Shown piece after piece: positions 1,968 through 61,482 of a stretch of DNA of 64,000 nt. Origin of the DNA: an uncultured Gammaproteobacteria bacterium (lineage in GTDB: Bacteria > Actinomycetota > Acidimicrobiia > Acidimicrobiales > Aldehydirespiratoraceae); NCBI GenBank assembly GCA_964196195.1, contig CAXMSE010000027.1:20775-84774 (forward strand), given 5' to 3'. The notes below the pieces were generated by a model. The model saw only the letters and a program-made list of their open reading frames with translations, was not told the DNA's origin and ran no database searches. The translations under genes and the position numbers were made by a program. Within the stretch, counting starts at the first letter, position 1. Each line of letters starts with the position of its first letter.

Positions 1968-2447
1968 ATGTCGCCGACTACGTTTCGGCCTATGCATGAC
2001 ACGTACCTGATCATCCACATCCTCGCGGCCGGCACCTGGTTCGGCACGAACATGGTGCAGGTCGCCGTCAATCCCGGAATCAACAACAAGGCGCCCGTGA
2101 TCGCCGCGGAGTGGCATCGCACACTCGAGAGGTTCGCGATCCGGATCTACATGCCTGCGGCGATAGTGAGCCTGGTCACCGGCCTCCTTCTGGTGCTCGC
2201 GGTCGATGAAACCAGCTTCGAAATGTCTGATCTGTTCGTCTCGGTCGGATTTCTCATGATCATCGTCGGCGCGGCCATGGGGATGGGCTTCTTCATCAAG
2301 AAGAATCGGGCCGCTGCCGCCGCCTACGAGGCCGGCGATATCTCGCGGGCCGCCGACATCGAGAAGAAGATCGCATCCGCCGGCCTGCTCGACACCTTGT
2401 TGATCAGCCTCACAATTGTGGCGATGGTTTCCAAGTGGGGGGTCTGA
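1968..2447 (+). CDS. small integral membrane protein (about 4 TM helices), function unknown
   Basis: Hydrophobic segments IIHILAAGTWFG, AAIVSLVTGLLLVLAV, FVSVGFLMIIVGAAMGMGFF and LLDTLLISLTIVAMV. The start may instead be the ATG at 1992. Its stop lies 4 nt before the next gene. Confidence 0.5.
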   Translation: MSPTTFRPMHDTYLIIHILAAGTWFGTNMVQVAVNPGINNKAPVIAAEWHRTLERFAIRIYMPAAIVSLVTGLLLVLAVDETSFEMSDLFVSVGFLMIIVGAAMGMGFFIKKNRAAAAAYEAGDISRAADIEKKIASAGLLDTLLISLTIVAMVSKWGV

Positions 2448-2451
2448 ACCC

Positions 2452-4707
2452 ATGACCGAAGTCAACGCAGATCGCACGGTCTTTCGCACCTGTCCCCTCT
2501 GTGAGGCCACCTGCGGCCTCGAGATAGAGATCCACGACGGGGCGGTGAAGCGGATCCGAGGCGATCGCGACGATGTCTTCTCCCACGGCTTCATCTGTCC
2601 CAAGGGGTCCACCCTCAAGCAGCTCCACGACGATCCCGACCGTCTCCGCAAGCCGGTCGTGCGCCGCGGCTCGGGCGCTGATGGCACCGCGATCTTCGAG
2701 GAGGTGGAGTGGGACGAAGCATGGCGCGTCGTGGAGGAAAAGCTCTCCGCAGTTCGCGACCCCCACGGCAACGACGCCATCGGCGTTTACCTCGGCAATC
2801 CGAATGTGCACCTGCTCGGATCCTCCACCCACACGAGGCCTTTCCTTCGGTCGCTGGGGAGCCGCACGAGGTTCTCGGCCAGCACTGTCGATCAGATGCC
2901 GCGCCACGTGGCTTCGGGCTACCTCTACGGAAGCGGTATGTCGATGCCGGTGCCCGATGTCGATCGCACCGACCTCCTGGTGCTGATCGGCACCAACCCG
3001 TTCGTGTCCAATGGCAGCATCTGTACCGCTCCGGGTTTCCCCGATCGCATCGACGCGGTGAGAGAGCGTGGTGGACGGGTGGTGGTGATCGATCCCGCGC
3101 GCACCCGCACCGTCGAGTCGGCTGATCTTCACTTGCCGATCCGACCTGGCACCGACGCGGTCCTGCTCGCCGCGATCGCTCATCACCTCATCGCCACCGA
3201 TCGGGTGTCGCTTGGTCGGGTGGAGGCATTTGTCGATGGTCGCGACCAGCTGGCCGAGTCGCTCGAACCGTTCTCACCCGACTATGCCGCCGCCGTCACC
3301 GGAATCCCGGCTGCGGAGATCGTCGCTCTTGCCGAGGAGATCGCCGATGCCGAGTCGGCCGCCGTTCACGGTCGAATCGGCACCACCACGGTGGAGTTCG
3401 GTACCCTCACCACCTGGTTGATCGATGTCATCGCGATCCTCACCGGCAACCTCGACAGGCCGGGTGGCTCGATGTTCCCGATGTCGGCGATCGAGCGGGT
3501 TAGAACCGAACGGGCGGGCCGCGAATATCGGGTGGGGCGATGGGCCAGCCGGGTGAGTGGCCACCCCGAGGTGCAGGGCGAACTGCCCGCGGCCGACATC
3601 GCCGATGAGATCCTCGAACCGGGTGACGGCCAACTCAAGATGATGTTCACCATTGCCGGCAATCCGGTGTTGTCGTGTCCCGATGGCGACCGCATGGACG
3701 AGGCGTTCGCGGCCCTCGACGCGATGGTGAGCGTCGACATCTACATCAACGAGACAACCCGTCATGCCGATGTGATCCTGCCACCGGTGAGCGCTCTGGA
3801 GAAGAGCCACTACGACATCGCGTTCTACGGATTGTCAGTGCGTAATGTGGCGAATTGGTCGGGGCCGGTATTCGGCGCCGATGGTCCGGCGGAGGACGAC
3901 ATCCTCGCCAAGCTCGCCCTCATCTCGCTCGGCTTGGGGCCCGATGCCGATGTCGAGCTGGCTCATGGTCAGGTCATACGGGAGTTGCTCACCTCTGAGG
4001 TCGGCGCCGACGGGTCGCCGGTGGCCGGGCGCGACATCGACGAGCTGGTCGCGATGGTCGGTGGTGATGCCGGGTGTGATCGTGTGCTCGACGTTCTCAT
4101 TCGCACCGGTCCCTATGGCGATGGGTTCGGCGCCGACCCCGAGGGGCTCTCGGTGGACAAGTTGAAGGCTCACCCCCATGGCATCGATCTCGGTGCCCTG
4201 CAGCCCCGCCTGCCCGAGTTGCTCAGGAGCCCCAACGGCCGGATCGACCTGTTCGCGGGTCCGTTCGACGAGGAACTCCAACGCCTTGGTGCGGTGATGA
4301 CCGAGCAGGCCGGTGATGGCCGTCTCCGGCTCGTGGGCCGGCGGCATCTGCGCTCCAACAACTCGTGGATGCACAATGTGGAGGTGCTCGTGAAGGGCAA
4401 GCGACGTTGCACCCTCCAGGTTCATCCCGATGATGCGACGCGCCTCGATCTGGTCGATGGGGCCGAGGCAGTGGTGCGGTCGCGCGTGGGCGAGGTGATT
4501 GCACCGGTGGAGGTCACCGACGTGATCATGTCGGGAGTGGTGAGTCTTCCCCACGGGTGGGGCCACGACCTGCCAGGGGTCCGCCTCGATGTCGCGCGCA
4601 GACACGCCGGCGTAAACAGCAACGTCCTCACCGACCCGGCCGCGATCGACCCCCTTTCGGGCACCGCCGTGCTCAATGGGATCCCCGTCGAGGTCGCTCC
4701 CGCCTGA
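2452..4707 (+). CDS. molybdopterin (bis-MGD) dependent oxidoreductase, FdhF/BisC-like superfamily
   Basis: N-terminal 4Fe-4S Cys motif CPLCEATCGL..ICPKG. Size and layout fit a molybdopterin oxidoreductase with a C-terminal MopB_CT-like barrel. No in-frame stop. Confidence 0.85.
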   Translation: MTEVNADRTVFRTCPLCEATCGLEIEIHDGAVKRIRGDRDDVFSHGFICPKGSTLKQLHDDPDRLRKPVVRRGSGADGTAIFEEVEWDEAWRVVEEKLSAVRDPHGNDAIGVYLGNPNVHLLGSSTHTRPFLRSLGSRTRFSASTVDQMPRHVASGYLYGSGMSMPVPDVDRTDLLVLIGTNPFVSNGSICTAPGFPDRIDAVRERGGRVVVIDPARTRTVESADLHLPIRPGTDAVLLAAIAHHLIATDRVSLGRVEAFVDGRDQLAESLEPFSPDYAAAVTGIPAAEIVALAEEIADAESAAVHGRIGTTTVEFGTLTTWLIDVIAILTGNLDRPGGSMFPMSAIERVRTERAGREYRVGRWASRVSGHPEVQGELPAADIADEILEPGDGQLKMMFTIAGNPVLSCPDGDRMDEAFAALDAMVSVDIYINETTRHADVILPPVSALEKSHYDIAFYGLSVRNVANWSGPVFGADGPAEDDILAKLALISLGLGPDADVELAHGQVIRELLTSEVGADGSPVAGRDIDELVAMVGGDAGCDRVLDVLIRTGPYGDGFGADPEGLSVDKLKAHPHGIDLGALQPRLPELLRSPNGRIDLFAGPFDEELQRLGAVMTEQAGDGRLRLVGRRHLRSNNSWMHNVEVLVKGKRRCTLQVHPDDATRLDLVDGAEAVVRSRVGEVIAPVEVTDVIMSGVVSLPHGWGHDLPGVRLDVARRHAGVNSNVLTDPAAIDPLSGTAVLNGIPVEVAPA

Positions 4708-19638: not shown

Positions 19639-21066
19639 ATGCAGACCCAGATGCTCATCGGTGGAGAATGGCGCGACGGGAGCGACGCAGAACGCATCCC
19701 CGTTCTCAATCCTGCCACCGGCGAGGTGATCGCCGAGGTGGCCGCGGGCACACCTGCCGATGCCGTCGCGGCGGTTGATGCGGCCGAAGAAGCTCAGAAG
19801 AGCTGGGCTGGCACCGCTCCGAGAGTGAGATCAGAGGTGCTGCGGAGCTGCTTTGAGACCCTGATCGACCACACCGACGAACTCGCTCGGCTCATCACCA
19901 CCGAGCATGGCAAGCCTCTCGCCGACTCCAAGGCTGAGGTGACGTACGCAGCGGAGTTCTTCCGTTGGAACTCCGAGGAGGCGGTGCGTATCGAGGGCAC
20001 GATCAAGACCGCTCCCAACGGGCTCCACAAGATGATCGTCCATCACCAACCGGTGGGTGTGGTGGTGATGGTCACTCCCTGGAACTTCCCCGCGGCGATG
20101 ATCACCCGCAAGGTGGCGCCTGCCCTCGCCGCCGGCAACGCCGCGGTCATCAAGCCTCCCAAGCAGACTCCGTTCACCGCGCTTCGGGTCGCCGAACTGC
20201 TCGAGGAGGCGGGAGTGCCGGCTGGACTGGTCAATGTGGTGCCCACCGCCAACTCGGGTGCCTGGTTCGAGGCGGCCACCGATCAACGGGCGGTTCGCAT
20301 GGTTTCGTTCACGGGATCCACCGAGGTGGGTCGGGTCCTGTTGAAGCGCTGCGCCGACCGGGTTCTCAAGGCCGGCATGGAACTCGGCGGCAATGCCCCA
20401 TTTGTCGTGTTCGCCGACGCCAACATGGACGACGCGGTGGAGGGCGCGATGACGGCCAAGATGCGCCATTCCGCTGAGGCGTGCACGGCGGCCAACCGGC
20501 TGTTCGTTGAAGCGTCCATCGCCGATGAGTTCACCGCTCGACTCGCGGTGGCCATGGGCGCCATGAAGGTCGGCAACGGGATGGAGGAGGGCGTGGCCTG
20601 CGGGCCGATGATCAACGCCGGAGCCATCGAGACCATCGATTCGCTCGTGAAGAGCGCCATCGGCGCGGGCGCCTCCACTGCGGTCGGCGGCGCCCCGATC
20701 GATGGTCCCGGGTTCTTCTATCAGCCCACCGTGTTGGGCGGTGTATCGATGGAGTCGCCCATCACTCGAGAGGAGATCTTCGGCCCCGTGGCCCCCGTCA
20801 TCCCCTTCACCGATACCGATCAGATGGTCGACTGGGCCAACGACACGGAGATGGGCTTGGCCGCCTATGTGTTTTCCGGCGATGTTGCTCGGGCCATGGC
20901 GGTGGGGGAGCGCATCCATGCCGGCGTCGTTGGTATCAATCGCGGGGCGATGTCTGATCCGTCGGCTCCGTTCGGCGGCATGAAGCAGAGCGGCCTGGGT
21001 CGAGAGGGCGCCCACGAGGGCATCTTCGAGTTCTGCGAAACCCAATACATCGCCGCCGCGTGGTAG
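19639..21066 (+). CDS. gabD: NAD(P)-dependent succinate-semialdehyde dehydrogenase / aldehyde dehydrogenase
   Basis: ALDH motifs VTPWNFP, FTGSTEVG, MELGGNAP (catalytic Glu) and the catalytic-Cys region AEACTAANR. 475 aa. Confidence 0.88.
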   Translation: MQTQMLIGGEWRDGSDAERIPVLNPATGEVIAEVAAGTPADAVAAVDAAEEAQKSWAGTAPRVRSEVLRSCFETLIDHTDELARLITTEHGKPLADSKAEVTYAAEFFRWNSEEAVRIEGTIKTAPNGLHKMIVHHQPVGVVVMVTPWNFPAAMITRKVAPALAAGNAAVIKPPKQTPFTALRVAELLEEAGVPAGLVNVVPTANSGAWFEAATDQRAVRMVSFTGSTEVGRVLLKRCADRVLKAGMELGGNAPFVVFADANMDDAVEGAMTAKMRHSAEACTAANRLFVEASIADEFTARLAVAMGAMKVGNGMEEGVACGPMINAGAIETIDSLVKSAIGAGASTAVGGAPIDGPGFFYQPTVLGGVSMESPITREEIFGPVAPVIPFTDTDQMVDWANDTEMGLAAYVFSGDVARAMAVGERIHAGVVGINRGAMSDPSAPFGGMKQSGLGREGAHEGIFEFCETQYIAAAW

Positions 21067-21132
21067 AGCGCTGAAGCGGGTCCCACTTCGGCCTGCATCT
21101 ATAGCTACAGTCGGGCCATCAACGACGACCCT

Positions 21133-21987
21133 GTGCTTCTCGAGAACGGACAGGCCTTCGATCCGGCGCACTACCCGGATCGACCGATAGCAGTGGACAC
21201 CGAGTCGGGGATCGTCGCGATCGGTGCGCCACGCAGTCGGCGGCACAAGGCCGTTCACGACCTGAAGGCCCCCGATTTCACCTTGCCCGATCTTCGCGGT
21301 GGCCTCACCGCGCTGTCCGACCACCGTCACAAGAAGCGCCTGCTCATCGCCTTCTCCACATGGTGAGGTTGTGCTTTCGATCTGCCAGGTTGGCAGGCAC
21401 TGCAGGATGAGCTCGGGGCCGAGAATCTCCAGATGATCGCGGTGGCCATCGATGAGGACGTGGAGAAGGTGCGCGGGTTCGCCGCCGACATCACCTATCC
21501 CGTGCTGATCGATGCCGATCACCTCCTCACCGAGCTCTACGCCATCTCCAACGTGCCCACAGTGGTGATGATCGATGAGGACGACACGATCGCCTACCCC
21601 AACTGGAGCGCGTTCGGCACCGACACGTTCAAGGACTTCACCGGCATCGATTCTGAGGCTCAGAAGGACCGCATCCGGGCGTGGGTAAACGACGAGATGA
21701 CCCCGATGACCGATACCGACGCGAGAGCCGCGGTGGGTGATCTCAGTGCCGACGAGGAGGCAGCGCGCCTCCATTTCCGGATTGCTGCTCACCTGCGCAT
21801 CGCCGGAGACGCGGCCGGTGCCGAGCGCAACTTCGATCGCGCCGCCGAGCTCGCTCCTCACGACTGGACGATCCGTCGAGCGATGATTCCCCTGCGAGGT
21901 GGAGACCCATTTGGTGAGGAGTTTCTGGCGCTCTACGCCGAGTTCGACGCGGCGGGTAGGCCCTATCACGGTGTCACCGGCTACTGA
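21133..21987 (+). CDS. TlpA/ResA-like thioredoxin-fold redoxin with a C-terminal TPR-like helical tail; in-frame TGA (21364-21366) at the redox motif, candidate selenocysteine
   Basis: Track ORFs 21133..21366 and 21433..21987 share one frame and are separated only by the TGA. Read through, the sequence is APDFTLPDL..KRLLIAFSTW-[TGA]-GCAFDLPGWQALQDEL..LQMIAVAID..YPVLID..NVPTVVMID, a complete thioredoxin fold. Confidence 0.6.
21371..21400 (+). promoter_or_regulatory. SECIS-like stem-loop downstream of the in-frame UGA
   Basis: GTGC-(TTTCGAT)-CTGCCA-GGT-TGGCAG-GCAC. A 6-bp upper stem and a 4-bp lower stem. The apical GGU loop starts 21 nt after the UGA. Confidence 0.4.
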
Positions 21988-56680: not shown

Positions 56681-56820
56681 CGGTGAAGAGGGCTCCTGGG
56701 GTGCTGGCCTGGGCGTGGAAGAAGGTGGCCAATGGCCTTAGTGACGTTGCGAACTGGCGGAGAGTATGTTGGCTAGGTCGAGGTTTTTTGAAGAGGACAC
56801 GTGCGACTGAAGGAGCAGTG

Positions 56821-59800
56821 TTGACCGTCAAGCCCCCATTTCCGGGTACCCGTATCACCACCAACGGGAACCAGCTGGTTTCGTATCACACCGAGGCGAG
56901 GATCACTCAGGGCGGCGTGTTCTACCCGATCACGCCATCCACCGAAATGGGGGAGAACTACCAGTTGGCATTCGCCGAGGGCTCACTCGACGTGTACGGC
57001 AACAAGAAGGTGGCCATCGAGACCGAGGGTGAGCATTCAGCGCAGGGTGGCGCAATAGCGCTCTCGATGACGGGCCGACGAGTGGTGAACTTCACGTCGG
57101 GTCAGGGCCTTGTCTACGGCCTCGAGCAGTACTACCACGCTCCCGGCAAGCTCTCGACGCTGGTGGTGGAGGTGGCCGCCCGTGCTCTCACCAAGCATGC
57201 ACTCAACGTGCATTGCGGCCACGACGACATCTACGCGGCCCTCGACACGGGCTGGATGATGCTGTTTGCCAAGGATGCCCAGCAGGCAGCCGATCAGTCC
57301 TTGATCGCTCGGCGGGTCACAGAGCTGTCCCTGAACCCGGCGATCAACATCCAAGACGGATTCCTGACCTCCCACTTGGAACGCACCTTCTATCGCCACG
57401 AGTCCGAGCTGATGCGCCAGTTCTTGGGGGCGCACGACGACACTATCGATTGCCCCACTCCCGCCCAGCGTGAACTTTTCGGCCCCACTCGTCGCCGAGT
57501 GCCGCGAATGATCGACCTGAAGAATCCGATGCTGCTGGGTCCTGTGCAAAACCAAGAGCACTACATGAACGGCGTGATCGCCCGTCGCAACAACTTCGCC
57601 GATTATGTGGCGGGCTTCCTCGACGAGGCCTACGAGGAGTTCGCCCGGCTCACCGGCCGGCGCTACGGAATGATCACCGAGTACTGCTGCGACGATGCCG
57701 ACACCGTGTTCGTATCGCTTGGTTCAGCCGCCGAGAATGTGGAAGCCGCGGTCGACTATCTGCGTGAGAACGACGATGCCAAGGTCGGGTCGATTCATGT
57801 CAACGTGCTGAGGCCGTTCCCGGAGGCAGCCTTGGTGGAGGCGCTGCGGGGAAAGAAACGGGTGATCGTGCTCGAGCGCACCGATGATCCGCTGTCGGGA
57901 GACAATCCGCTCGGGCGAGAGATCAGGGCGTCGATCAACAAGGGAGTCGAGGTCGGACGCGAACACCCCGACGGTGACGTTCCCGTTCTCGAACCGTCAG
58001 AAGTGCCGATCCAGTTCGCCGGCACCTACGGGCTGGGTTCGCGCGACTTCCGTCCTGAGCACTCGATTGGTGCCTACGAGTTCGCTGTCGGCCAGACCAA
58101 GCGTCTCGACGGGCGCGGTCCCCACGACGGTGTCCGCAACTTCGTTCTGGGCATCGATCATCCCCATGCCGTGGTCTCCGAGCGCACGCCGTCGCTTCTT
58201 CCCGAAGGGGCGATTGCGGTGAGGTTCCACTCGATCGGCGGCTGGGGGATGATCACCACCGGCAAGAACCTGAGCGAGATCATCGGCGAGATCGGCGAGG
58301 ATGTCTCCCGTCGCCGCGAGGACTACGACGAGTTCGGCCGCCCCACTGAGGTCGTGCATGTGTCGGCCAACCCGAAGTACGGGTCTGAGAAGAAGGGTGC
58401 GCCCACCCAGTACTTCCTGGTGGCGGCTCCCGAGCGGATCCGGGTCAACTGTGATCTGCGCCATGTCGACGTGGTGTTGTGCTGTGATCCCAAGGCGTTC
58501 ACCCACTCCAACCCGCTCGAAGGCATCAGCGAGGGCGGCACGTTCATCATCGAATCCGATGAGGATCCCGAGACGGTGTGGCAGCGCATCCCGGTGTACG
58601 CCCGCCATCAGATAATCGACAATGACATCAAGGTGTACGCGCTGGCGGGGTTCGATATCGCGAAAGCCGCCACATCGCGCGAAGACCTCCAGCTGCGCAT
58701 GCAGGGCAACGCCTTCCTCGGCGCGTTCTTCGCGGTCTCAGGGCTACTCGAGGAGTACGGGGTCAGCACCGAGCAGTTCCACAAGTTGGTGCGGGCCCAG
58801 TACGTCAAGAAGTTCGGCCGTTTCGGTGACGGGGTCGTCGAATCCAACATGGTGGTGATGACCGAGGGTCTCGACCGGGTGCGCGAGATCCCCCACGGTC
58901 CGATCGATGCCGCCGACCGGTCCACCATGCGCCATCCCTCGCTGGAGGCGTGTGATGTGTGCGGGCCGCTTCCCTCCGATGTGGTTTCGGTGGAGCAGCC
59001 GGTACGTATGCCGCTCGCCCGCACCGCCACCTTCGACGCGGAATTCCGAGCCGGCTTGGGATACGACCAGCCTGCCTCGGCCTTGTCGTCGGTGGGCATG
59101 ATGCCGGCCGCCACCGGCGCCACCGCGAGCAAGTACGGGTCGCGTCGCCAAACACCGGTGTGGATCGAGGAGAACTGCACCCAGTGCCTCGACTGCATCA
59201 CCGCGTGTCCCGACACCGCGTTGCCCAACACGGCTCAAGACATCGACACCATCCTCAAGACGGCCGCCAACGCCTACATCACCGATCTCGACGACCGACG
59301 CGCGGTGATCGCCGCGGTTCCGGCCCTCGAGACCACCGTGAGAGCCCAAATGAACGGTGCGATCGCCGACAAGGAGCTCACGCCGTTCATCGACCTGCTC
59401 ACCCAGGCTGTTGCCGATACGCCTGAGATCGGTGAGCGGGCGCGGGATCAGTTCCTGGCCTTGTTCAAGCGGGTGCCGTTCGCCTACTTCAAGACGGCGC
59501 CGATATTCCGTTCCATGGAACGCAAGGAGTCGGGCAGCGGCGGCCTGTTCTCGATCATGGTGTCCGACCTCTGCAAGGGGTGCGGTGAGTGTGTGGTGGA
59601 GTGTGGTGAGCATGAGGCGCTCTACATGGCCGACGAGACATCTGATCTCAACGCCGATCACCTGAGTGGCACCAACTTCTTGAAGATGCTGGCCGACACG
59701 CCCACGAAGTACCTCGGGCGATTCGATCCCAAGCATCCCGAAGAATCACACGTCGCCCAGCTCAAGAACCACCTGATGCTGCGAAGCCAGTACGAGGCGC

Positions 59801-61482
59801 TGGTCAGCGGCGACGGCGCTTGTGCCGGGTGTGGAGAGAAGACAGTTCTGCATGCGCTTGCCTCTCTGACCGAGTCGTACATGCGGCCCATGTTCCACTC
59901 CAAAGCAGATCGGTTGGCGGCCAAGGCCGAGACCCTGATGGCCGAGGGCGAGGCCCGCTTGGCTGCCCTGGCCGAGAAGAGTCCCGAGGAGCACGACCTT
60001 TTCTGTCGCGCGGTGGCCCACATGTTGATGGGTCTCGGTGGTGACGATGCTGAGGACACCGATGCCCGGCTCGCGGCTCACGGCAAGATCACCGACGCCG
60101 AGATCGTCGATGCCATCGGCCAGGTGATGCGCCGTGACGCGTTCAACCACCGCGACCTTCAATCCGTCGACGGTATGACTGCCAATGGCATGTCGGTCAT
60201 GGCCATGGGTGCCCACACCGGCTGCAACACCGTCTACGGTTCGACACCGGTCAACAACCCACATCCCTACCCATGGATGAACTCCCTGTTCCAGGACGGG
60301 GCGACGATCTCGTGGCTCCTCGGGGAGGGATTCATCCTGACTCACGCTCGTCGTTCGGTGATTCCCGAGCGCCTGTGTAATCACCTTCTCGACGGTAAGA
60401 CGGCGATGGATCCCGCCGAATACGACAATCTGGTGCACTTGACCGACTCCGAGATGACAGCCCAGGAGATCCGTGAGCTGCCCAAGGTGTGGGCGATCGG
60501 TGGGGATGGCGGGATGGGCGATATCGGTTACCAGAATGTGTCGAAGGTGGTGCTCCAGAACCGCCCCAACGTCAATATGTTGATGCTCGATACCCAGGTG
60601 TACTCCAACACCGGTGGTCAGAACTCCGACTCCACACCGATGCCTGGTGGTGGCGACATGAACCAGTTCGGTCATTCGTCGCAGGGCAAGCTCACCGAGA
60701 AGAAGGGAGTGGCCGAGACCTTCGTCGGTGGTCATGGCTCGCCGTTCGTCGCCCAGGTGTCGGCGGCCAACACCGCCCAGTTCTACAAGGCGATCCTCAA
60801 TGGTCTCGAATATCGCGGCACCTCCTTTTTCCAGTGCTTCACGACCTGCCAACCCGAACACGGGGTCGCCGACGACATGTCTACCCAGCAGGCTGTGCGC
60901 ATCCGGGATTCACGCGGGATGCCCCAGTTCGTCTTTGCGCCGGCGAAGGGCGAGTCATACGAGGACTCCCTCGATCTGGCGGGCAACCCGAGCGTCACCC
61001 GCGATTGGTACCAGAAGACGTCGAAGGCCAGCGGCCGGCACTTCCAGTACCTGCCGTCGCACTGGGCGGTCACCGAGGCGCGGTTCCGTCGCCACTGGAA
61101 GCCGATCGAGTCGGCCGACGGCTTGATCGATCTCCACGACATGCTCACCGTGGTCACCCAGAACGACGTGGTCGAGCGATGCGTGTTCGACACGAGCCAC
61201 CGTTCGTTCATCCCGGACTGGGGCGTTTTCACCGAGATCGAGAACGAATCCGGTCAGGTCAGCACGATCGCGTTATCGCGCCAGATGGTGTTGTTCTGTG
61301 TCGAGCGGCGCCGTGCCTGGCGCATGCTCCAGAGTCGGGCCGGTGTCACCAACATCGACTATGTGGCCCAGAAGGCAGTGTTGGCGGCGTTCGCCGCCGG
61401 CGAACAGGGTGATGAAGATCGTTTCGCTTTCGCGGCGGCGATGCGCGACCGCGAGCTCGAAACGCTCCTGGCCGACGCCTAG
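56821..61482 (+). CDS. pyruvate:ferredoxin(flavodoxin) oxidoreductase-like fused 2-oxoacid:acceptor oxidoreductase, unusually long (~1553 aa)
   Basis: GAAGGAG lies 5 nt before the TTG at 56821 (GTG 56818 is an alternative). N-terminal TTNGNQLVSYH..FYPITPST. Two CxxCxxCxxxC motifs (59176, 59572). GDGACAGCGE, and the TPP motif GGDGGMGDIGYQN..DTQVYSNTGGQ. Confidence 0.88.
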   Translation: MTVKPPFPGTRITTNGNQLVSYHTEARITQGGVFYPITPSTEMGENYQLAFAEGSLDVYGNKKVAIETEGEHSAQGGAIALSMTGRRVVNFTSGQGLVYGLEQYYHAPGKLSTLVVEVAARALTKHALNVHCGHDDIYAALDTGWMMLFAKDAQQAADQSLIARRVTELSLNPAINIQDGFLTSHLERTFYRHESELMRQFLGAHDDTIDCPTPAQRELFGPTRRRVPRMIDLKNPMLLGPVQNQEHYMNGVIARRNNFADYVAGFLDEAYEEFARLTGRRYGMITEYCCDDADTVFVSLGSAAENVEAAVDYLRENDDAKVGSIHVNVLRPFPEAALVEALRGKKRVIVLERTDDPLSGDNPLGREIRASINKGVEVGREHPDGDVPVLEPSEVPIQFAGTYGLGSRDFRPEHSIGAYEFAVGQTKRLDGRGPHDGVRNFVLGIDHPHAVVSERTPSLLPEGAIAVRFHSIGGWGMITTGKNLSEIIGEIGEDVSRRREDYDEFGRPTEVVHVSANPKYGSEKKGAPTQYFLVAAPERIRVNCDLRHVDVVLCCDPKAFTHSNPLEGISEGGTFIIESDEDPETVWQRIPVYARHQIIDNDIKVYALAGFDIAKAATSREDLQLRMQGNAFLGAFFAVSGLLEEYGVSTEQFHKLVRAQYVKKFGRFGDGVVESNMVVMTEGLDRVREIPHGPIDAADRSTMRHPSLEACDVCGPLPSDVVSVEQPVRMPLARTATFDAEFRAGLGYDQPASALSSVGMMPAATGATASKYGSRRQTPVWIEENCTQCLDCITACPDTALPNTAQDIDTILKTAANAYITDLDDRRAVIAAVPALETTVRAQMNGAIADKELTPFIDLLTQAVADTPEIGERARDQFLALFKRVPFAYFKTAPIFRSMERKESGSGGLFSIMVSDLCKGCGECVVECGEHEALYMADETSDLNADHLSGTNFLKMLADTPTKYLGRFDPKHPEESHVAQLKNHLMLRSQYEALVSGDGACAGCGEKTVLHALASLTESYMRPMFHSKADRLAAKAETLMAEGEARLAALAEKSPEEHDLFCRAVAHMLMGLGGDDAEDTDARLAAHGKITDAEIVDAIGQVMRRDAFNHRDLQSVDGMTANGMSVMAMGAHTGCNTVYGSTPVNNPHPYPWMNSLFQDGATISWLLGEGFILTHARRSVIPERLCNHLLDGKTAMDPAEYDNLVHLTDSEMTAQEIRELPKVWAIGGDGGMGDIGYQNVSKVVLQNRPNVNMLMLDTQVYSNTGGQNSDSTPMPGGGDMNQFGHSSQGKLTEKKGVAETFVGGHGSPFVAQVSAANTAQFYKAILNGLEYRGTSFFQCFTTCQPEHGVADDMSTQQAVRIRDSRGMPQFVFAPAKGESYEDSLDLAGNPSVTRDWYQKTSKASGRHFQYLPSHWAVTEARFRRHWKPIESADGLIDLHDMLTVVTQNDVVERCVFDTSHRSFIPDWGVFTEIENESGQVSTIALSRQMVLFCVERRRAWRMLQSRAGVTNIDYVAQKAVLAAFAAGEQGDEDRFAFAAAMRDRELETLLADA

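Follow-up and report, generated by a model that had tools for sequence, protein, structure and literature searches.

Does an in-frame UGA at the redox motif of a thioredoxin-fold protein encode selenocysteine (Sec), or does it simply end a gene? The question is raised by positions 21133-21987 of the window, the 64,000-nucleotide stretch of contig CAXMSE010000027.1 that was analysed as a whole. We conclude that the region is very likely to encode one protein, a soluble thioredoxin-fold oxidoreductase with Sec as its active-site nucleophile. It is very probably a real and so far unannotated Sec-encoding gene, which gene callers have cut in two at the UGA.

One reading frame with a single interruption

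ORFs 21133-21366 and 21433-21987 lie in a common frame whose sole break is the TGA at 21364-21366. Around it the sequence reads TTC TCC ACA TGG TGA GGT TGT GCT TTC GAT CTG CCA GGT TGG CAG, in which codons 21361-21372 (+), TGG TGA GGT TGT, would give W-U-G-C. The UGA (21364..21366, +) is the predicted Sec codon and stands where the thioredoxin-fold motif has its N-terminal nucleophilic Cys. The TGT codon at 21370..21372 (+) supplies the partner (resolving) Cys of U-G-C, at CxC rather than CxxC spacing, and this Cys is invariant across homologs.

The read-through CDS of the predicted selenoprotein (21133..21987, +) comprises 284 codons including the UGA and ends at its own stop, TGA 21985-21987. 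From the proposed start, GTG 21133 (the closest species, locus L005, has TTG there), the computed mass of the product is 31.3 kDa. TGA ends 21 of the 25 long high-GC3 ORFs in the window; it is thus the usual stop here, the genetic code is the standard one and any recoding must be site-specific. The initial annotation had described the locus in these terms, as a frame split by one TGA in a region where TGA otherwise terminates normally, with a product of ~31 kDa, and all three points held. Other in-frame TGA sites resemble ordinary gene ends, whether in the window (4705+, 39256+, 39430+ and 34059-) or in flanking sequence from the genome loci.

In assembly GCA_964195555.1, to whose contig CAXMQR010000100.1 the window was matched, just the downstream ORF of 184 residues (P0001) is called, and it carries no annotation. 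In essentially all of the public Acidimicrobiia genomes examined the gene is likewise split or truncated, and appears as fragments of 184-203 aa labelled 'hypothetical' or 'redoxin domain'.

The UGA alternates with cysteine

A protein search returned more than 1,000 homologs. The full-length ones come from Acidimicrobiia, measure ~345-370 residues and are named 'peroxiredoxin' or 'TlpA disulfide reductase family protein'; every full-length annotated homolog carries the site motif F-[AS]-[ST]-W-C-G-C, with Cys at the column of the TGA. The closest relatives (70-77% identity) are all N-terminally truncated calls of ~190-200 residues that start directly after the motif, and the same in-frame TGA was found upstream of two such calls, one in a JGI metagenome and one in an Ilumatobacter MAG.

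When one genome per GTDB species was searched, 330 relatives were found, and among the best 80 of these 330 the column is TGA in 77 and TGC in 3. Carriers of the TGA extend down to 55% identity. Among them are closed genomes (Ilumatobacter NZ_OZ244049.1, OZ242339.1, NZ_OZ241965.1 and OX638344.1) and a cultured member of the Acidimicrobiales, Salinilacustrithrix flava EGI L10123 (NZ_CP133888.1). Combining this species-representative scan with a metagenome scan seeded with Cys forms gave 97 unique Sec forms, all with TGA, and 55 unique Cys forms, with TGC or TGT; no other state occurs. The UGA therefore falls, as had been proposed, where homologs place their first redox Cys. The Gly and Cys of U-G-C are invariant among aligned homologs, and on a neighbour-joining tree the Sec/Cys state switches about twice.

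A hairpin constrained only in Sec forms

Downstream of the UGA the Sec forms share an RNAalifold consensus, a 6-bp stem N-CUGCC / GGCAG-N closed by a 5-nt loop 20 nt after the UGA. In the window this SECIS-like hairpin occupies 21381..21397 (+), with a 5' arm at 21381-21386 (UCUGCC), a 3' arm at 21392-21397 (GGCAGG) and an apical loop at 21387-21391 (AGGUU); we base it on the consensus fold, on pair counts with controls, on the contrast between Sec and Cys codons and on energetics. Bacterial SECIS (bSECIS) elements are recognized by a loop of 3-9 nt, a stem of 4-16 bp, a distance of 16-37 nt from the UGA, a G in the first two loop positions and an MFE of -7.5 kcal/mol or lower (PMC13188914). 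The window hairpin lies within all of these bounds (5-nt loop, 6-bp stem, loop beginning 20 nt past the UGA, G at loop position 2, MFE -8.6 kcal/mol), and an MFE of -7.5 kcal/mol or better is reached by 94% of Sec forms versus 47% of Cys forms.

The initial annotation had drawn a longer structure, and only its inner part survives comparison. The CTGCCA-GGT-TGGCAG core is where it was proposed to be, with the GGT beginning 21 nt past the UGA. The outer stem, GTGC/GCAC (21371-21374 / 21397-21400), is peculiar to the window and not conserved, its inner pairs forming in just 30-37% of Sec-form orthologs.

Folding the window sequence by itself does not single out the hairpin, which is no better than chance (z -1.55 to +1.0); for 21364-21405 the minimum-energy structure is another fold, with a GCC loop, that orthologs do not conserve. 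Thus, the significance of the hairpin comes only from comparison across genomes and not from single-sequence energy. This alternative, GUGCUUUCGAUCU / AGGUUGG-AGGCAC (-11.2 to -14 kcal/mol), is confined to the window; it competes there with the SECIS stem that the Sec forms share. At gathering thresholds Rfam matched nothing in the window, and it has no SECIS model that fits; bacterial SECIS elements are poorly represented in Rfam, as is also noted elsewhere (bioRxiv 10.64898/2026.04.03.716425).

The decisive test is whether synonymous constraint over the hairpin is specific to Sec forms, and it is. The stem encodes L-P-G-W-Q, and because this peptide is invariant in the Cys forms as well, they serve as a natural control for RNA constraint. 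The conserved LPGWQ partly fixes the stem bases, which leaves just three or four positions informative about RNA structure. At these the two groups differ sharply. The Leu codon is CTG in 96 of 97 Sec forms (TTG in the other), whereas Cys forms use CTG (30), CTC (17), CTT (6), CTA (1) and TTG (1), and the Pro codon CCG, present in 29 of 55 Cys forms, occurs in 0 of 97 Sec forms. At the Pro and Gly codons, the third bases combine only as A/T, C/G or A/C in Sec forms but in ten of the 16 possible ways in Cys forms, and all six stem pairs form in 90/97 and 27/55 sequences, respectively. On the tree, the third position of Leu changed 0 times among Sec forms (length 9.6) and 16 times among Cys forms (length 5.0), while a control synonymous site changed 33 and 17 times.

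Covariation points in the same direction, with compensatory changes found alongside the synonymous-site constraint that is confined to Sec forms. The closing pair of the stem varies among C-G, U-G, U-A and A-U. Within the loop, positions 1 and 4 (window 21387 and 21390; columns 24 and 27 of alignment A5) correspond to the third codon positions of Pro and Gly. They hold complementary bases (Watson-Crick, A..U or C..G) in 95 of 97 Sec forms, switch jointly ~6-7 times on the tree and have the highest MI in the region, 0.98 bit. In a formal pair count 98.7% of cells were paired, versus 90.7% in shuffles and 30-77% with slid partners, and 0 of 500 shuffles reached the observed covariation score.

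This coupling suggests a cross-loop pair around GG, similar to the N1-N2 pair of the published bSECIS pattern but offset from it. Bacterial SECIS elements such as that of E. coli fdhF are likewise stem-loops inside the CDS shortly past the UGA; shared features are a short apical loop with GG/GU, a loop start 20 nt from the UGA and an MFE under -7.5 kcal/mol. Unlike the bSECIS consensus N1-G-[G|U]-N-N2, which pairs positions 1 and 5 (Zhang & Gladyshev 2005, as summarised in PMC13188914), the window clade appears to pair loop positions 1 and 4 (A..U/C..G around GG), and it has no conserved lower stem.

Architecture of the predicted protein

With U written as C, the product matched AhpC-TSA (PF00578, E 1.6e-13) and Redoxin (PF08534, E 4.5e-12) above the Pfam cutoff. 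Together with PDB sequence matches and Foldseek, these matches define a thioredoxin-fold (Redoxin/AhpC-TSA, ResA/TlpA-like) domain at residues 45-157 (21265..21603, +). The Pfam match crosses the TGA at residue 78, in agreement with the earlier observation that neither half alone makes a complete thioredoxin fold. A family-specific C-terminal helical domain of ~120 residues follows (21626..21984, +), marked by the conserved motifs APxDxTxRRA and PLxGxDPFG...G.P.HG and by weak TPR-like Pfam matches (TPR_2, E 0.012, below cutoff).

As modelled with confidence by AlphaFold (pLDDT 94.7, pTM 0.91), a full-length Cys homolog contains an N-terminal beta-rich domain, the thioredoxin fold and the C-terminal helical domain (helices 224-330 in P0008), and its Cys/Sec residue sits directly before helix 135-153. 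Foldseek matched the central domain alone, with ResA (1su9/1st9) at E 1.4e-9, a target TM of 0.76-0.78 and an rmsd of 1.3-1.7 A over 114 columns. PDB sequence matches were to 3kcm, ResA and TlpA, in alignments that put a one-residue gap against WCPPC.

The central domain thus has the same fold as ResA, TlpA and CcmG (DsbE). Unlike those proteins, the family has CxC/UxC instead of CxxC, no signal peptide or membrane anchor by hydropathy, and extra N- and C-terminal domains for which there was no PDB match among the top matches. A scan of hydropathy alone found no hydrophobic segment in five proteins (maximum 19-residue KD19 value 0.9-1.35); the protein is therefore probably cytoplasmic, unlike ResA/TlpA. 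For these reasons, the missing hydrophobic segment and the CxC motif, we rejected a reading as a secreted ResA/TlpA protein. A peroxiredoxin reading was also rejected. The PxxxTxxC/U motif is absent, as KKRLLIAFSTW precedes the U, with no Pro at -7 and with Thr at -2 instead of -3.

The window gene and L005 are without the first ~55 residues, an N-terminal domain that all other orthologs carry and that includes an LGWxLKPEGLCxDDxCV element with two invariant Cys. Upstream of the window gene (21067-21132) a remnant, ACIYSYSRAINDD, still resembles the CVLVPDRSAIERD of orthologs. An aldehyde dehydrogenase gene precedes it at 19639-21066; the stop of that gene, TAG 21064-21066, shares the frame and lies 99 codons ahead of the Sec codon.

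Relation to described selenoprotein families

The gene belongs to a known, biochemically uncharacterised type of selenoprotein, and a curated family is its sister. The GOS selenoproteome survey (2008) described 'Prx-like (UGC-containing)' proteins on pfam00578 with the motif UGC, comprising 46 Sec sequences and 855 Cys homologs; a 2026 review lists a 'UGC-containing TlpA family', and the Sargasso Sea paper has one UXC Prx-like read. With these types the window gene shares a thioredoxin fold on pfam00578 (/cd02966), Sec in U-G-C, many Cys homologs and a basis in bioinformatic prediction only. We infer identity with the UGC-containing TlpA type, whose published representative is MDE0950781.1, from the motif, Pfam and NCBI's name for the Cys forms. 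The spread through Acidimicrobiia, the three-domain architecture and the SECIS of the window clade go unmentioned in the surveys compared.

The best NCBIfam match is NF041054, 'ResA-like WAxxUGC motif-containing protein' (WAxxUGC_long, an equivalog of 354 positions). The initial annotation had mentioned a ResA-like WAxxUGC family; it exists and is the nearest curated one, but every score fell below its cutoff of 300 bits (window 143.5, five full-length Sec orthologs 190-215, Cys homolog 209.7). Common to both are U-G-C, a length of ~350 residues and an N-terminal domain joined to a thioredoxin fold, as seen in the orthologs, the window gene being without the first ~55 residues. Orthologs align from position 7 or 8 of NF041054 to ~205, and one to 316, with the C-terminal domain mostly unaligned. 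Instead of W-A-x-x-U-G-C the window has F-S-T-W-U-G-C and its orthologs F-[SA]-[ST]-W-U-G-C, so that U-G-C alone is shared. The sub-cutoff score probably explains the truncated public annotations. A literature search for 'WAxxUGC' found nothing.

A more ambitious proposal is that the Acidimicrobiia clade constitutes a distinct three-domain cytoplasmic U-G-C redox enzyme of undescribed function. It would be decoded by a lineage-specific SelB rule, in which the pair between loop positions 1 and 4 presents two Gs and an invariant U5 stays outside the pair, and its N-terminal CxxxxC domain would be dispensable, as in the window gene and L005. We regard this combination as possible but rather doubtful.

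Proposed decoding of the UGA and alternative readings

By analogy with the bacterial Sec pathway, a ribosome reaching the UGA at 21364-21366 would meet the hairpin 15 nt downstream, which may recruit SelB-GTP-Sec-tRNA(Sec). Sec would be inserted at the UGA and translation would run on to TGA 21985-21987. As in other thioredoxin-fold enzymes, Sec at the N-terminus of helix alpha-1 may then attack a disulfide or oxidised substrate, and the Cys two residues on in U-G-C would resolve the intermediate as a selenenylsulfide.

Genes for this pathway did not appear in the sequence at hand. ARAGORN identified no tRNA-Sec, neither in the window nor among 80 loci; E. coli SelA, SelB and SelD as tblastn queries matched nothing in the window and all loci (1.7 Mb); and no Sec genes are among the Pfam labels of the rest of the ~90-kb contig, viewed through a near-identical sister assembly. 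Two over-long ARAGORN calls, a 90-nt 'tRNA-Asn' (L046 1818-1907, -) and a 92-nt 'tRNA-Gly' (L068 765-856, +), had no Rfam tRNA or tRNA-Sec match and are probably false positives. Elsewhere in the class, selA, selB, selC and selD are reported in 84 of 84 complete genomes of Actinomarina, from the sister order Actinomarinales (bioRxiv 10.64898/2026.04.03.716425). This machinery makes Sec decoding plausible for Acidimicrobiia as a class, and is not evidence for the window genome. That preprint and irrelevant mentions were all that a literature search on Ilumatobacter/Acidimicrobiales and selenocysteine returned.

As no Sec machinery turned up in the loci searched, and as conserved downstream hairpins also mark some read-through signals, the UGA might instead be decoded by a near-cognate tRNA (Trp, Cys or Gly) while the hairpin slows termination, a programmed read-through with no Sec involved. 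We consider this unlikely. It does not account for a UGA that lies exactly in the catalytic Cys column and alternates with Cys alone, and Trp or Gly as nucleophile would inactivate a thioredoxin-fold site. Additionally, the hairpin agrees with the bacterial SECIS model in loop size, loop G, spacing and stability, and the selenoprotein type has already entered selenoproteome surveys.

Very unlikely is that the UGA is a true stop separating two polypeptides, a 77-residue N-terminal piece and 184 residues from ATG 21433, even though TGA is a common stop here and gene callers annotate the downstream ORF alone (P0001, 184 aa). From the TGA to ATG 21433 lie 22 codons whose translation is conserved in both Sec and Cys forms, and orthologs do not have two separate genes. 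The Met of ATG 21433 is itself Val or Ile in orthologs, and the start chosen by gene callers differs from genome to genome. Two polypeptides would moreover divide a thioredoxin fold that spans the TGA, and would leave the Sec-specific synonymous constraint over the hairpin with no role.

Compared with L005, the nearest species (88% identity), the window gene has a dN/dS of 0.13 past the UGA and 0.25 ahead of it, and thus both halves are translated and under purifying selection. In a metagenome-assembled genome whose gene has lost its N-terminal domain one might suspect a pseudogene, or a TGC/TGT turned into TGA by faulty sequencing or assembly, but this is effectively excluded by the frame that is otherwise intact, by the dN/dS on both sides and by recurrence of the TGA in 77 of the best 80 species-representative relatives and in 97 unique sequences from independent assemblies, including closed chromosomes and S. 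flava.

Implications for annotation

Sec insertion into a single redox protein remains our preferred reading, and since the selenoprotein type has been listed since 2008 our results are a confirmation and extension, not a discovery. A clade-specific model would repair hundreds of annotations. A TGA at the U-G-C site could also flag Sec use, which within the class has so far been reported only for Actinomarinales. Additionally, as the same peptide is encoded over the hairpin in Cys and Sec forms, RNA and protein constraint can be separated unusually cleanly, and the comparison points to a cross-loop pair.

Gene neighbourhood and other observations

Gene neighbourhoods of the orthologs are not conserved. 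In the window, a 763-residue molybdopterin oxidoreductase with an N-terminal CxxCxxxC Fe4S4 motif is encoded at 2416-4707 (+) and ends at TGA 4705; its labels in the sister assembly are Molybdop_Fe4S4, Molybdopterin and Molydop_binding. Past this TGA, 186 in-frame sense codons of high GC3 look like a neighbouring gene and not a Sec site. At 56683-61482 (+) lies a very large single-chain pyruvate:ferredoxin-oxidoreductase-like gene (ORF of 1,599 codons, called product of 1,553 residues) with the domains POR_N, PFOR_II, POR and TPP_enzyme_C.

A second assembly, GCA_964196515.1, contains a contig (CAXMUE010000004.1, 94,353 bp; L168 and L169) on which two proteins from the window edges are identical and in the same gene order. 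Thus, the same or a near-identical organism has been assembled independently. Upstream of the Ilumatobacter ortholog (L004 1241-8241) we observed a corrinoid methyltransferase cluster that encodes a B12-binding protein, a DUF1638 protein, a pterin-binding protein, a RACo-type activase and an MttB-family methyltransferase.
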